Shown: one piece after another, positions 5,554 through 53,548 of the stretch
Numbering within the stretch: the first letter of the stretch is position 1
Layout of the letters: each line of letters begins with the position of its first letter
Assembly (NCBI GenBank): GCA_050178795.1
Contig: JBFXFT010000004.1
Location: 25,630 to 89,629 of the forward strand
Direction: 5' to 3'
From: Spirochaetales bacterium
GTDB taxonomy: Bacteria > Bacillota > Clostridia > Christensenellales > UBA1242
Length of the DNA stretch: 64,000 bases
Position numbers and translations under genes: made by a program
Notes under the pieces: model-generated
The model's input: only the letters and a program-made list of their open reading frames with translations
Databases searched by the model: none
What the model was told of the DNA's origin: nothing

Positions 5554-5571
5554 AACCGTAGGAGGTAATTG

Positions 5572-6054
5572 ATGAAACCTGAATACATTATTATAATTAT
5601 TTTCGGGTTGCTTGCAGTTTATATAATAGTGGAATCACTTATAAATAGCAGTAAGGTAAAAAAGTCCAAGACAGACGCAAAAAAGCCTGACGATAAAGGC
5701 AAAAAAGCAAGCGATGTTGTGGAATTAAAATCTGTCATTACTCCTAGAATAGATGGAGAGGCTGTAGAAAGAAAGAGCAATGAAGACGCTCTAAAAGAAG
5801 CGGCAGCAGAGAGCATACAACTAGAAAAAGAGTGGAAAGATTCCCTTTTAAAAGAAGAACAAGTAGCAGCGCAAAAAATTGAAGAAAAAAATAAACAAGA
5901 AGAGTTAGAAAAAAAAGTAGCAGAAATGCGAAGAAGACTTGACGCAATAGAACTAAGTGACGAGGAAGAAACCTTTGTAGACGAAGTTTCTATGCTAAGT
6001 CCAGAGTTAAAAGCTATACTTTTTGCGGATCTTCTTAAACGCAAAGACTATTAA
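5572..6054 (+). CDS. hypothetical membrane-anchored E/K-rich coiled-coil protein (position of B. subtilis yqfB)
   Basis: GGAGG 6 nt before ATG 5572. One N-terminal TM (IIIIIFGLLAVYIIV), then a charged helical region. Confidence 0.6.
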   Translation: MKPEYIIIIIFGLLAVYIIVESLINSSKVKKSKTDAKKPDDKGKKASDVVELKSVITPRIDGEAVERKSNEDALKEAAAESIQLEKEWKDSLLKEEQVAAQKIEEKNKQEELEKKVAEMRRRLDAIELSDEEETFVDEVSMLSPELKAILFADLLKRKDY

Positions 6055-6185
6055 AACAGTTTAAATTTGGTCAATCTCATCGTTTACTGCGGTGCCAAGT
6101 CAAACAGTCACATATTACATATATGCTCCTGCTTGAACTTGACACCGCGAGCCTTGACCTTGACACAAATTTAAACTGTTTTTTT
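6053..6185 (+). repeat. structured repeat, full copy 1 (subfamily A)
   Basis: P1 6053-6074/6160-6182 (22 bp); CGTTTACT 6081-6088; P2 6089-6101/6135-6148; AAACAGTC 6102-6109; P3 6110-6125; CTCCTGCTT 6126-6134; GAGCCTTG 6149-6156; T-run 6179-6185. Confidence 0.9.
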
Positions 6186-6199
6186 GTTGCAGTAAAATA

Positions 6200-6249
6200 A
6201 TTACAAAATTGTGTGAGCATTTTTCTTGCACAAATTAAACTATTTTTTT
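6200..6249 (+). repeat. 3' fragment of the structured repeat (copy 1b)
   Basis: attacaaaat junction, then gtgtGAGCAtttttcttgcacaaattaaactattttttt. Near-identical to the 3' part of copy 3 (gtgtGAGCCttgttcttgcacaaattaattcttttt). Confidence 0.75.
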
Positions 6250-6866: not shown

Positions 6867-7757
6867 ATGTTTAAGAGCGGTTTTGTAACCATAATAGGTA
6901 AGCCAAATGTTGGCAAGAGTACCTTACTAAATAGAATAATAAACGAAAAAGTTTCAATAGTTTCGCCAAAGCCACAAACTACTAGAAACAACATAACAGG
7001 CATTTTGAATGGCGAAGGTTACCAAGCAGTGTTTTTAGACACTCCGGGTATGTTAAAACCAAAAAGTAAGTTGGACGAATATATGTTGCAGTCAATAAAC
7101 GCTTCACTAGATGGAATTGATGTAATTTTATATCTATTAGACGCAGGCAAGCCTTTTAGCGATGATGAACTAAACCTAATTGAAGGTTATGCAAATGGCG
7201 ACGCCAAGTTAATTTTGGTAGTAAATAAAATTGACGAAACCAATTTTGAAAACCTATACCCAAAACTTGACAGGCTAAACAAACTAAAAAATATTGTAGA
7301 CATAATACCAGTGAGCGCCCAAAAAGGCAAAAATGTAGACGTACTTGTAGAGGCGGTGTTAAAACTACTTCCTGAGGGCATAAAATACTATCCAGACGAC
7401 GAGCACACAGACAGTTCAGAAAGGTTTCTAGTAACCGAAATAATAAGGGAAAAAGCGCTTTGGCACTTGCAACAAGAAATACCTCACGGAATAGCAGTAA
7501 TTTTAGAGCGATTTGAACAAAAATCAAAAATTATTGAAATAGACGCCCTAATTATTTGCGAAAAGGCATCGCATAAGAATATAATAATAGGTAAGAAGGG
7601 TGAGATGTTAAAGAAAATTGCAACCAATGCAAGGCTTGACATTGAAAAACTTTTAAACAGCAAAGTGTATTTAAATATTTTCGTAAAAGTAAAGGACAAA
7701 TGGAGGGACAATTTAACTGAAGTAAACGCTTTTGGTTATAAGAAGGACGAAATTTAA
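6867..7757 (+). CDS. era: GTPase Era
   Basis: GKPNVGKSTLLN, DTPG, NKID, C-terminal KH domain. Confidence 0.95.
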   Translation: MFKSGFVTIIGKPNVGKSTLLNRIINEKVSIVSPKPQTTRNNITGILNGEGYQAVFLDTPGMLKPKSKLDEYMLQSINASLDGIDVILYLLDAGKPFSDDELNLIEGYANGDAKLILVVNKIDETNFENLYPKLDRLNKLKNIVDIIPVSAQKGKNVDVLVEAVLKLLPEGIKYYPDDEHTDSSERFLVTEIIREKALWHLQQEIPHGIAVILERFEQKSKIIEIDALIICEKASHKNIIIGKKGEMLKKIATNARLDIEKLLNSKVYLNIFVKVKDKWRDNLTEVNAFGYKKDEI

Positions 7758-7774
7758 TTATAGGAGGTGTGAAT

Positions 7775-8664: not shown

Positions 8665-8782
8665 TTTAGTTAACTTCTTCGTTTACTATCTTGCGGCGCA
8701 AAACAGTCACATATTACATATATGCTCCTGCTTTGACGCCACAAGCCGAGCCTTGAATTTAATCTAAATTACCGTGTTTTTT
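8652..8782 (+). repeat. structured repeat, full copy 2 (subfamily A)
   Basis: 5' arm 8652-8669 contains the recO stop; CGTTTACT 8680-8687; CTCCTGCTT 8725-8733; GAGCCTTG 8748-8755; 3' arm 8764-8782 with T-run. Central 35 nt identical to copy 1. Confidence 0.9.
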
Positions 8783-8794
8783 GTTGTTATAAAT

Positions 8795-8850
8795 ATTACA
8801 AAATGCAAAACCACCACGAGCCTCGTACTTGCATAAATTAAAGGCTTTTT
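8795..8850 (+). repeat. 3' fragment of the structured repeat (copy 2b)
   Basis: attacaaaat junction, then ccacGAGCCtcgtacttgcataaattaaaggcttttt, resembling the 3' part of copy 4. Confidence 0.7.
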
Positions 8851-8866
8851 ATTATCATTGTTTAAT

Positions 8867-8884
8867 CTAAATTACAGTGTTTTT
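8867..8884 (+). repeat. second, perfect 3' arm complementary to the recO-end 5' arm
   Basis: ctaaattacagtgttttt is the exact reverse complement of 8652-8669. Confidence 0.8.
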
Positions 8885-8924: not shown

Positions 8925-8946
8925 AAGCCCTTTAATGGGCTTTTTT
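8925..8946 (+). terminator. conventional intrinsic terminator downstream of the recO repeat cluster
   Basis: aagccc/gggctt stem followed by tttttt. Confidence 0.65.
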
Positions 8947-11814: not shown

Positions 11815-11851
11815 AAAGCCTTGAATTTATCAAAAATTAAAACTTTTTATT
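11815..11851 (+). repeat. 3' fragment of the structured repeat (copy 3b)
   Basis: aaAGCCTTGaatttatcaaaaattaaaactttttatt. The tail aaaattaaaacttttt recurs at 45895-45910. Confidence 0.65.
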
Positions 11852-11865
11852 GATTATAAAATAAC

Positions 11866-11893
11866 AAAAAAACCTCATTTATTGAGGTTTTTT
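11866..11893 (+). terminator. conventional intrinsic terminator downstream of the ppdK repeat cluster
   Basis: aacctca/tgaggtt stem followed by a T-run. Confidence 0.7.
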
Positions 11894-45889: not shown

Positions 45890-45913
45890 CTTACTAAAAT
45901 TAAAACTTTTTTT
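45890..45913 (+). repeat. 3' tail fragment of the structured repeat (copy 4b)
   Basis: cttactaaaattaaaacttttttt shares aaaattaaaacttttt with 11833-11848. Confidence 0.55.
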
Positions 45914-52674: not shown

Positions 52675-53322
52675 ATGTTTACGGCACAAGATGTAGTAGA
52701 ATTAAGAAAACTTACTGGTGCAGGAATGATGGACTGTAAAAAGGCTCTAACAGAATGTAACGGCAATATGGAAGATGCAAAAGACTTTTTGAGAAAAAAA
52801 GGTGTAAGCGCTGTAGCCAAAAAGGCTGGAAGAATTGCCGCAGAGGGCATGATTGGTTCTTACATTCACATGGGTGGAAAAATCGGAGTACTAATTGAGG
52901 TTAACTCAGAGACAGACTTCGTAGCAAAGAACGAAAAGTTCCAAGAATTAGTAAAAGACCTAGCTATGCACATTGCCGCTTCTAAACCAGAAGTAGTAAA
53001 TACTGAAGACCTTTCTGAGGAAATGGTAAATAGAGAGCGTGCAATCTACAAAGAGCAAGCACTAGCAGAAGGAAAGCCTGCAAATATCGTTGATAAAATG
53101 ATTGAAGGCAGAGTAAAAAAATATTACAAAGAAGTAGTTTTAATGGAACAACCATTTATTAAGGACCCAGACAAGACTATAAGAGATGTAATGAACGACG
53201 CAACTTTAATAATTGGTGAAAAACTTGTAATTAGGCGTTTCACTCGTTATGAACTTGGCGAAGGTCTTGAAAAAAGACAAGACAATTTTGCTGAAGAAGT
53301 TATGAGTCAAGTTAAAAATTAA
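52675..53322 (+). CDS. tsf: elongation factor Ts (short form)
   Basis: ELRKLTGAGMMDCKKAL UBA-like N-terminus; 215 aa. Confidence 0.9.
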   Translation: MFTAQDVVELRKLTGAGMMDCKKALTECNGNMEDAKDFLRKKGVSAVAKKAGRIAAEGMIGSYIHMGGKIGVLIEVNSETDFVAKNEKFQELVKDLAMHIAASKPEVVNTEDLSEEMVNRERAIYKEQALAEGKPANIVDKMIEGRVKKYYKEVVLMEQPFIKDPDKTIRDVMNDATLIIGEKLVIRRFTRYELGEGLEKRQDNFAEEVMSQVKN

Positions 53323-53531: not shown

Positions 53532-53548
53532 AAAATTACAGTTTTTTT
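53532..53548 (+). repeat. second copy of the 3' arm at the tsf locus (copy 5b)
   Basis: aaaattacagttttttt can pair with the same 5' arm 53327-53339. Confidence 0.6.

Follow-up and report, generated by a model that had tools for sequence, protein, structure and literature searches.

The five ~130-nt repeats of the window (the whole 64,000-nt stretch of DNA that was analysed) are most likely small mobile DNA homing to transcription terminators, rather than a new kind of regulatory RNA. The best explanation, to which we assign a probability of about 0.55, is that they belong to an uncatalogued, non-autonomous and mosaic family of terminator-associated hairpins (MITE/BOX/SPRITE-like) from an uncultured clade of gut Clostridia, with loops probably recognised by a trans-acting enzyme and co-transcription as part of 3' UTRs. 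The family comprises about 150 copies, counted as covariance-model matches, in about 111 stretches from many MAGs of uncultured gut Clostridia. Its members are small (130-190 nt), non-coding and multi-copy.

The window contains exactly five full copies, all on the + strand, which score 68-82 bits in an unfiltered search with a covariance model based on 35 non-redundant members of the family. The next-best match in the window is a 3' fragment at 8767-8834 with 15.4 bits. The pattern CTCCTGCTT-N14-GAGCCT gives 5 matches at 0 mismatches in the window, on the + strand only. The copies are:

6053..6185, + strand: copy 1, full element, beginning within the TAA stop of ORF161 (downstream of floA), with T7 after P1; 82.1 bits
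8652..8782, + strand: copy 2, full element, 5' arm overlapping the final 12 nt of recO, followed by a T-run; 81.9 bits
11673..11806, + strand: copy 3, full element, 5' arm overlapping the final 15 nt of ppdK; 79.2 bits
45746..45882, + strand: copy 4, full element, 5' arm overlapping the final 9 nt of hslU (...KYVL*), with block 4 as the variant GAGCCTAA and without a T-run directly after P1; 68.2 bits
53327..53455, + strand: copy 5, full element, 5 nt past the tsf stop, followed by T8; 81 bits

Five full copies at these places and on this strand had been claimed in a preliminary description of the DNA, and both the model and an alignment of the copies over their whole length bear this out. The same holds for their position at or near stop codons (inside the stop for copy 1, over the gene ends for copies 2-4, just after the stop for copy 5) and for the T-run, of T5-T8, that follows the rod in 4 of 5 copies. 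That all copies are sense is true in the window, and the bias is also family-wide, but within the window it carries little weight because nearly every gene there is on the + strand. The name yqfB-like, given earlier to the gene upstream of copy 1, is a label by synteny only, the gene before ORF161 being FloA (YqfA family); no Pfam or NCBIfam family matched ORF161. The P1 arms pair over 14-22 bp and are related between copies, being of the TAATTTGGTTAA type in copies 1, 2 and 5 and TTAATTNGCACAAT in copies 3 and 4. The blocks common to all five copies are CGTTTACT, AAACAGTC, CTCCTGCTT and GAGCCT.

Each window copy folds as a single rod with an MFE of -39 to -53 kcal/mol and a z of -7.3 to -10.8, and no shuffle was as stable as the native sequences (0/200). 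The parts of the rod within copy 1 are:

6081..6088, + strand: block 1, CGTTTACT, 5' side of the outer internal loop
6102..6109, + strand: block 2, AAACAGTC; its AAACAG forms a helix with CTGCTT (block 3) in which an A.C mismatch is conserved
6110..6125, + strand: apical hairpin P3, covarying
6126..6134, + strand: block 3, CTCCTGCTT
6149..6156, + strand: block 4, GAGCCTTG, 3' side of the outer internal loop

The AAACAG:CTGCTT pairing with its A-C mismatch, proposed earlier, is recovered in the fold and in the family alignment, and variant copies show A-U swapped to C-G beside the retained A.C. The other mismatch, a C-A at the same position of P2 in five copies, was also described correctly, all ten coordinates carrying the bases claimed. 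Covariation of the core is strong (91% paired versus 72% in shuffled sequences; 146 double changes observed versus 46 expected). In P1, P2 and P3 it persists when 35 sequences from multiple species are aligned and shuffle and slide controls are applied. Three of the four blocks called invariant are fixed by the search pattern itself, and these blocks do vary, with changes seen in variant copies. Block 1 lies outside the pattern and is kept family-wide, with the variants CGTTAACT and TGTTTCT. Shared blocks and covarying stems are found both among the copies and across species, and the covariation of P1, P2 and P3 together with conserved block 1 supports the view of a selected fold, not a neutrally decaying repeat. 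As also described earlier, no ORF can traverse the element: its segments vary in length from copy to copy (13/14 and 16/17 nt).

The blocks had not been recognised as any known riboswitch, T-box, leader or ribozyme, and Rfam 15 was likewise negative, with 0 matches at the gathering score in the window and, at E<=1 on six loci, only a chance match to Atu_C9 (E=0.74). The implied discrete functional RNA class (riboswitch- or leader-like) is, however, unsupported. The family acts as an interspersed, mosaic and mobile repeat, with presence/absence at orthologous sites, target duplications in a sister subfamily, arrays, truncated copies and no association with any gene class seen across its members.

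The two strands of the rod are not equivalent. In all 39 representatives the minus strand has the better fold, by 4-22 kcal/mol, because the fixed C-A and A-C mismatches become G.U there. This would suit an antisense small RNA, made from the minus strand, as the selected molecule, but the advantage stems almost entirely from these two fixed positions, P1 is balanced, and one invariant U.G sits on the plus strand. No conserved minus-strand promoter-like site reads into the elements, and such an RNA has no obvious rationale at ~150 unrelated 3' ends, which makes it highly implausible. On the sense strand, P1 tolerates G.U (259) and A.C (222) with no strand-specific preference; this balance argues against sense-RNA-specific selection on the P1 helix and is as expected for a palindrome at the DNA level.

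Half-copies or orphan 3' arms are located downstream of every window copy, and conventional terminators follow two of them:

6210..6249, + strand: what is left of a second, 5'-truncated element (P2 3' arm, GAGCA, P1 3' arm, T-run), 24 nt past copy 1 and like the 3' end of copy 3
8805..8850, + strand: 5'-truncated remnant after copy 2 (P2 3' arm, GAGCCTCG, P1 3' arm, T-run), partly covered by the weak 15.4-bit match at 8767-8834
8860..8884, + strand: orphan arm with T-run that duplicates the P1 3' arm of copy 2 and complements the copy 2 5' arm perfectly
8925..8946, + strand: intrinsic terminator of conventional type, past the copy 2 cluster
11832..11851, + strand: after copy 3, an orphan segment like a P1 3' arm, plus a T-run
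11867..11893, either strand: conventional bidirectional terminator downstream of copy 3
45896..45913, + strand: after copy 4, an orphan segment like a P1 3' arm, plus T7
53532..53548, + strand: orphan arm with T-run that duplicates the P1 3' arm of copy 5

The terminator downstream of the copy 2 cluster places the elements there inside the recO 3' UTR. The element may itself act as an intrinsic terminator, given the T-run behind the rod in 4 of 5 copies and outer stems that resemble bare terminators at empty sites, but its hairpin is as long as ~130 nt and copies 2 and 3 still have conventional terminators downstream.

Across the family, copies sit at gene 3' ends with ~80% in sense orientation. 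The upstream gene is co-directional with the copy in 85 of 104 cases; tandem contexts are divided into 35 sense versus 9 antisense, 34 contexts are convergent and only 6 divergent. GC/AT skew follows the coding strand and so does not separate replication from transcription as the determinant of orientation. The bias could equally stem from a need for transcription or from the direction of replication. Tandem arrays were identified in L033, L111, L026 and L056. Truncated copies occur, also with the 3' end missing (L111), and variants bearing insertions are present and have themselves multiplied. A motif-based count of 5'- versus 3'-truncated copies was discarded as unreliable, since block 1 variants escape the pattern.

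This distribution could also reflect a function at the RNA level, primary to any spread, as a cis-acting module of the 3' UTR: a 3'-exonuclease barrier, an extended terminator or a protein docking site. Spread would then be secondary, with host co-option, as proposed for REP, ERIC and SPRITE elements. Besides the sense orientation, the T-runs and the cross-species covariation with conserved loops, such a role would agree with the location of copies 2 and 3 between stop codon and conventional terminator and with the insertion of variant domains that leave the core intact. Retention points the same way: copies are kept after rpsG in L033 and L024 and after ppdK in three divergent genomes (window, L026 and L072) that are themselves ~70-76% identical, which could mean long retention and function, not repeated insertion. 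It is nevertheless unlikely as the primary role: A.C and G.U are about equally accepted in sense-strand P1, the sense fold is weakened by two invariant mismatches while the antisense is always stabler, close relatives lack the element at the same genes, no gene class is favoured, and truncated and tandem copies suggest turnover, not maintenance.

Filled and empty sites were identified after orf161, recO and ppdK, an insertion polymorphism as in MITEs. At an Era identity of 69-76%, copies follow one or other of these genes in L112/L116 and L026, whereas a plain terminator is present at the corresponding places in L113, L114 and L115; none of the loci at <=55% Era identity has a copy. When the element-bearing loci were searched by BLAST, no clean empty allele came up in addition to this Era-anchored set. 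On these sequence comparisons the family is mobile, or at the very least dynamic. Between window copy 1 and the post-recO copy of L026, identity reaches 92.6% with flanking genes at just 69-76%, a case of either strong constraint or an exchange in recent times. There is no support for a phage or plasmid as the vehicle of such copies: a search of annotated plasmids and phages by BLAST, with the long form and with copy 1, gave nothing, and neither did a pattern scan of IMG/VR viral contigs.

Traces of insertion are seen in the long form, a sister subfamily in which exact direct repeats of 15-27 nt, specific to the locus, flank 25 of the 57 copies, against a maximum of 14 nt in the cross-locus control. 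The duplicated segment is a whole terminator hairpin (2-3 A, hairpin, 2-3 T). Its length is variable and set by the target hairpin, not fixed as in MITEs. The ends CAGACTGTYGAAAAAC...GTTTTTCRRCAGTCTG, plus a 20-nt tail ending ...GTCTACAAGCTG, provide terminal inverted repeats of the kind found in MITEs; they have no A/T tail, and the 5' flank holds no conserved motif beyond the T-tract of the target hairpin. These target hairpins differ at every locus and the loops of the element are constant. Window-type copies show no target-site duplication, the longest common substring of their flanks being 9-10 nt, the background level; we infer their mobility from presence/absence, cross-locus similarity and the sister subfamily.

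Window copy 1 and the post-recO copy of L026 have the same outer P1 (AAAACAGTTTAAA...TTTAAACTGTTTT), which matches the bare recO terminator of L113, and copies of L112 at two loci have the outer stem AAAGCGTTA...TAACGCTTTT in common with different interiors. Outer stems that travel with the core could be products of 'terminator conversion', in which terminator-derived palindromes spread and are homogenised by recombination or template switching via A-run/T-run microhomology, with no transposition. The window-type copies without duplications, the half-copies and orphan 3' arms, and a tandem duplication in L026 that takes in the ppdK promoter would fit such a process. It is quite unlikely, as the long form has clean insertion-type duplications and the constancy of four non-complementary loop blocks is left unexplained.

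For the preferred reading of a non-autonomous mobile element, partner genes were sought. Clustering of 609 neighbouring ORFs gave none that recurs beyond orthologous neighbourhoods, and the ~750 kb of fetched loci yielded neither a transposase nor IS termini that match, nor an autonomous partner. A search for a gene between orphan element ends, as an autonomous partner would be, brought up only inverted P1 arms and divergent variants. An RNA-dependent system would use the rod as its non-coding RNA, either SINE-like and retro-mobilised or as a guide or bridge RNA (IS110, or TnpB/IscB omega-like) with its protein in trans. A rod with two conserved internal loops is compatible with this, sense orientation would ensure transcription from host promoters, variable-length duplications recall target-primed insertion, and 5'-truncated copies adjoin full ones. 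Nonetheless it is very unlikely, given that no recombinase, TnpB, IscB or reverse-transcriptase gene adjoins copies in 111 loci, no Rfam bridge, omega, HEARO or group II family matched, long-form ends lack an A/T tail and 3'-truncated copies exist as well; constant loops with differing targets are, moreover, the opposite of programmable loops.

Several known classes were considered and rejected. REP/REPIN with RAYT does not fit an element of 130-190 nt with no RAYT-like arrangement and no recurrent neighbouring ORF; the L015 gene bracketed by inverted copies is a TlyA-like methyltransferase, the genes of this locus being YloV-like, TlyA-like and coat-like. Elements of the IS200/IS605 group have sub-terminal hairpins and no TSD and insert 3' of a fixed tetra- or pentanucleotide, and neither a PATE of this group nor a TnpB omega-RNA agrees with a single rod, long TSDs in the long form and no tnpA or tnpB nearby. 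The 'different 5' half' of L001/L028, considered as a TnpB/IscB omega-RNA, is actually a 104-nt insertion inside block 1 and not a gene end. Bridge and seek RNAs (IS110/IS1111) are encoded at the element end beside a DEDD recombinase and have loops complementary to target and donor; here no recombinase ORF is adjacent, and the loops are constant while the targets vary. Finally, integron attC sites have R''/R' boxes in arrays of promoterless cassettes next to intI. The present ends misfit the R''/R' consensus (RYYYAAC...GTTRRRY) and the flanking genes are housekeeping genes (recO, ppdK, hslU and tsf).

Among described repeats, ERIC/IRU are imperfect palindromes of ~127 nt and BIME are mosaics of palindromic units, both in Enterobacteria, and ERIC and REP elements affect mRNA stability or attenuation when transcribed. 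The family shares with ERIC/IRU and REP/BIME a location in transcribed intergenic regions and an unusual conservation between species (partly PMC3049150), but host phylum and sequences differ. REP are 20-40 nt with a GTAG head and tied to REP-flanked RAYT genes, an arrangement without counterpart in this family. The same kind of distribution is found in SPRITE, BOX and RUP, small interspersed repeats of Streptococcus pneumoniae, which are likewise 100-200-nt non-coding Firmicute repeats with extensive predicted structure and many copies, enriched just past CDSs and between convergent genes, with orientation mirroring coding bias, co-transcribed with neighbours and encoding no dedicated transposase (PMC3049150). 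SPRITE has the look of an over-long Rho-independent terminator, with a long duplex and a U-rich tract, and the modular BOX (A-Bn-C) is comparable to the mosaic make-up seen here (PMC3049150). The resemblance to SPRITE and BOX is one of architecture and distribution only. Unlike SPRITE, BOX and RUP, the present family has four conserved non-complementary loop or mismatch blocks in one rod, in many species of an uncultured clade, and its sister form duplicates whole terminator hairpins, which is unreported for them in PMC3049150.

With classical MITEs (Correia, Nezha, RUP/IS630-Spn1) the family has in common that it is small, non-coding, AT-rich and multi-copy, with terminal inverted repeats pairing into a rod, presence/absence polymorphism and, in the long form, target duplications. 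The duplications of MITEs have a fixed short length set by the transposase, whereas those of the long form (15-27 nt) follow the hairpin size; also unlike MITEs, no IS with matching ends was found and window-type copies lack a duplication. Bacterial class C group II introns insert after intrinsic terminators. These and the REP-targeting IS1397/ISKpn1 (REP loops; listed in PMC1525189) share with the family a stem-loop target at gene ends and a fixed orientation to the hairpin. They are, however, autonomous, measure 1.4-2 kb, code for a transposase or RT and leave the hairpin unduplicated, in contrast to an element of 130-190 nt with no protein and no group II intron domains (no Rfam match). The only precedent found for long and variable target duplications is IS1549/IS1634, with 8-514 bp and no mechanistic model; these are autonomous DDE elements whose duplications are not described as hairpin-delimited (PMC2266710). 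The literature on hairpin-defined target duplications or terminator-loop MITEs gave partial analogues only.

In the mechanism proposed for the mobile element, the folded rod, whether ssDNA or RNA, would offer its conserved asymmetric loops and its mismatches as the recognition surface, and the recogniser would be a candidate trans-acting, structure-specific mobilising enzyme encoded elsewhere in the same genomes. This enzyme may also recognise hairpin-plus-A/T-tract targets, that is terminators, and its preference for them would account for the position of the elements at stop codons. After insertion, the rod and its T-run would be co-transcribed with the upstream gene and tolerated or mildly useful, by acting like an extended terminator or a 3'-end protective hairpin. 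The window-type outer stem resembles an A-run/stem...stem/T-run terminator frame around the core, a frame that would travel with the element and be reshuffled by duplication and recombination between copies. Conservation of the unpaired blocks across many species exceeds that of typical MITEs and counts against the mobile-element reading.

A more detailed picture, speculative and rather doubtful, is an undescribed mode of mobility in which a trans-encoded structure-specific integrase or nuclease reads the loops of the rod and attacks terminator hairpins. For the long form the cut would fall at the hairpin base on both strands, duplicating the whole hairpin in a manner that recalls repeat duplication by Cas1-Cas2. 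For the window type it would fall at the tip, leaving the core inside the terminator stem. If true, this would define a 'terminator-hunting' class of non-autonomous elements rewriting 3' UTRs across a clade of gut Clostridia. The hairpin-set length of the duplications misfits the fixed stagger of DDE transposition and points to an uncharacterised structure-specific targeting, and the conserved loops, as bait RNA or ssDNA, would be a handle for finding the protein responsible.

If the family is as proposed, this gut clade carries approximately one structured repeat per 10-15 kb at gene ends (5 full copies in the 64-kb window), invisible to current annotation in Rfam and in plasmid and phage records. 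The repeats would then affect the prediction of 3' ends, terminators and operon boundaries in MAGs of the clade. They are probably also a cause of assembly breaks, because many copies lie at contig ends.

The five ~130-nt repeats (copies 1 to 5) are best accounted for as a non-autonomous mosaic hairpin repeat at terminators, mobilised in trans by a putative loop-reading enzyme and carried in 3' UTRs, a reading given a probability of about 0.55. The element would accumulate at terminators as such a repeat, its folded rod being read by the putative enzyme through the conserved loops and mismatches, and in a 3' UTR the long hairpin with its T-run would be tolerated or mildly useful, perhaps through a terminator or stabiliser effect.

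The copies lie where the preliminary description had placed them, align end to end and start, as claimed, at the stop codons of ORF161 (the gene downstream of floA), recO, ppdK, hslU and tsf. A covariance model trained on 35 non-redundant family members and run on the window with filters off gave exactly five matches, all on the + strand (68-82 bits); the runner-up, at 15 bits, is a fragment immediately 3' of copy 2. Every copy folds as a single rod (MFE -39 to -53 kcal/mol, z -7.3 to -10.8) and the bases of the proposed C/A mismatch are present at all ten positions. The arms of the outer stem P1 are not unrelated but akin among copies 1, 2 and 5 and between copies 3 and 4. The sense orientation of all copies is true but carries little weight, because nearly all window genes are on the + strand. 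T5-T8 directly follows four of the five rods, conventional terminators are still present 3' of copies 2 and 3, which therefore lie within 3' UTRs, and each copy has downstream of it either a 5'-truncated copy or an orphan 3' arm, carrying a T-run of its own.

The family extends well beyond the window. A single scan of species-representative genomes with an exact pattern gave 111 stretches, without exception from uncultured gut Clostridia or Christensenella-like MAGs, in which repeats may have been collapsed or broken during assembly; with rough E-values, the covariance model detects ~150 copies in the fetched loci, some of them divergent (30-66 bits). Three of the four constant blocks between stems (AAACAGTC, CTCCTGCTT and GAGCCT) are invariant by construction in copies ascertained by the exact pattern; model-detected variants show that these also change. 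Block 1 (CGTTTACT) is outside the search pattern yet conserved, with variants CGTTAACT and TGTTTCT. Where ACACAGTC occurs with CTCGTGCGT, C-G replaces A-U beside the mismatch and the A.C mismatch itself is retained. No copy was found in annotated plasmids, annotated phages or IMG/VR contigs, and Rfam gave no match at gathering score nor at E<=1.

The earlier proposal of a fold under selection is upheld by covariation. RNAalifold on 35 non-redundant cores predicts the inner stem P2 and the apical hairpin P3, with double compensatory changes in 14 of 21 pairs. With a slightly extended core structure 91.4% of cells are paired, against 72.3% in column shuffles and 29-46% with slid partners, and double-change cells number 146 against 45.7 expected (matched by 0 of 500 shuffles); by these controls the fold is therefore selected. 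The full-length alignment of window-type copies (10 copies, 3 genomes) has 46 predicted pairs, 30 of them with compensatory changes, P1 included. That the element has a primarily RNA-level function in the 3' UTR is judged unlikely; wobble counts in P1 are balanced between strands (259 vs 222), without a tolerance specific to sense RNA and as expected of a DNA-level palindrome. The minus strand is more stable by 4-22 kcal/mol in 39 of 39 representatives, because the invariant C.A (P2) and A.C (AAACAG/CTGCTT) turn into G.U there. This asymmetry is confined to P2 (G.U in 99 of 878 minus-strand pairs vs 8 of 737 plus-strand pairs), the excess comes mostly from one fixed position, and the two mismatches are specifically conserved features. 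It does not establish an antisense RNA, and an antisense sRNA is highly improbable.

In a survey of 125 copies, with genes taken from crude ORF calls, the gene upstream runs in the same direction as the element in 85 of 104 cases; in tandem contexts 35 copies are sense and 9 antisense, and 34 contexts are convergent and only 6 divergent. The same distribution, with the coding bias likewise mirrored, is reported for the pneumococcal SPRITE, BOX and RUP repeats (PMC3049150). Copies occur in tRNA clusters too and not solely after protein genes, since a window-type copy (L097:947-1270, minus strand) lies between a tRNA-like 3' end (…GGGTCACCA) and tRNA-Leu. Element arrays start directly after the rpsG (S7; ...AHYRW*) stop codon in two different MAG species (L033:6483-7025 and L024:3244-3490), the L033 array having three tandem copies with a period of ~226 nt.

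Presence and absence were compared in Era-anchored metagenome loci (among them L112-L116); informative are those of the nearest relatives alone, at 69-76% Era identity. Sites after orf161, recO or ppdK are filled in L112/L116 and in L026, another fetched locus, and copies are absent in L113, L114 and L115. The empty sites are plain terminators, for example AAAACAGTTTA-TT-TAAACTGTTTTTTTTT after recO in L113 and AAAAAAACAGTGA-GTA-TCACTGTTTTTTT after ppdK in L115; in filled sites the conserved core is enclosed by an A-run/stem...stem/T-run frame, and window-type copies may target terminators. The outer P1 is the same in the L026 post-recO copy and in window copy 1, and its arms are those of the L113 recO terminator. 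These two copies, at different genes, are 92.6% identical and their flanking genes 69-76%; hence core and outer stem move together. Both L112 sites have a 5'-truncated copy or orphan 3' arm downstream, like the window copies. L026:2165-2560 is a tandem duplication of the element plus ~50 nt holding a putative ppdK promoter (TTGACT-17-TAATAAT), and its second copy has GAGCCTTGACCTTGACAC duplicated internally. An ORF of ~190 aa between recO and ppdK (L112:7876-8400), putatively GNAT-acetyltransferase-like by its sequence, is found in L112 only; the window, L026 and L113-L115 lack it.

A 190-nt sister subfamily, the long form, is found in many MAGs and has an additional inner hairpin and a conserved 20-nt tail. 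Exact locus-specific direct repeats (15-27 nt) surround 25 of its 57 copies, each a full hairpin preceded by 2-3 A and followed by 2-3 T, with the A-run kept upstream only and the T-run downstream only; cross-locus controls never exceed 14 nt. In 3 of the 57 the two flanking hairpins are inverses of each other, and most of the remainder have diverged hairpins on either side.

Long-form copies and their flanks
L004, L008, L010, L012, L013, L019, L037, L053, L066, L087, L093, L101 and others: exact terminator-hairpin duplications
L039, L015, L050, L070: flipped loop, upstream and downstream hairpins matching as reverse complements and not as direct copies
L003, L014, L021, L023, L046, L047, L076: the same insertion retained, homologous flanks at 76-94% identity, several MAG species; thus an old insertion shared by descent

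The direct repeats of the long form are a mark of insertion at intrinsic terminators, and the length duplicated is set by hairpin size, unlike fixed-stagger transposition. For duplications both long and variable in length the literature yielded a sole precedent, IS1549/IS1634 (8-514 bp, without a model; PMC2266710), where they are not hairpin-defined, whereas those of the long form are. That the element spreads between terminators through recombination or template switching, with no transposition involved, is considered improbable.

The mosaic character is seen in the following variants.

Mosaic variants
L028:2074-2180 (MAG CASDQU01): ~104-nt structured insertion in place of ACTGA in block 1
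L001, L038, L039, L055, L066, L090, L109 (also MAG CASDQU01): the same block 1 insertion
L072:5074-5365 (minus strand) and L108:~7400-7760 (minus strand): ~170-nt expansion after block 3
L056:410-960: arrays in which full copies alternate with a 3' module

The block 1 insertion, at no fewer than 8 loci of one MAG, has itself multiplied. The expanded variants (L072, L108, L056) have a distinct 3' module (…GTGCCGANAGTGCAGTTTTTGNCCCAAGACT…).

No gene bracketed by orphan element ends was found in the fetched loci, and among 609 ORFs (at least 150 aa, 111 loci) no family recurs outside orthologous neighbourhoods. The sole gene bracketed by inverted copies, considered as a RAYT-like partner, is a TlyA-like methyltransferase and was rejected. 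The element falls outside REP/RAYT, IS200/IS605-TnpB, IS110 bridge RNA, attC and every Rfam family, and an RNA-dependent mobile system is regarded as quite improbable. It has most features of a MITE but lacks a duplication of fixed length, and the fetched loci yielded no partner IS. The nearest described kin in architecture and distribution are SPRITE/BOX/RUP, ERIC/BIME and MITEs; the nearest in targeting are IS1397/ISKpn1, directed to REP loops, and class C group II introns, directed to terminators. The repeats are rated as a new family among the interspersed hairpin repeats of bacteria, one whose asymmetric loops are conserved to an unusual degree and which has a sister form with hairpin-sized target duplication.

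In window 1-64000 the + strand carries nearly all long ORFs; with GC skew between +0.09 and +0.21 and a positive AT skew in 15 of 16 bins, the pattern is typical of a PolC-type Firmicute leading strand. ORF161 (5569-6054), downstream of floA (ORF352, PF12127), has no Pfam or NCBIfam match and shares only ~41% identity with the ORFs at the corresponding position in L112 and L113. EF-Ts (52675-53322) is unusually short, with 215 aa, and matches TIGR00116 (293 positions) in two stretches, the middle part being missing.
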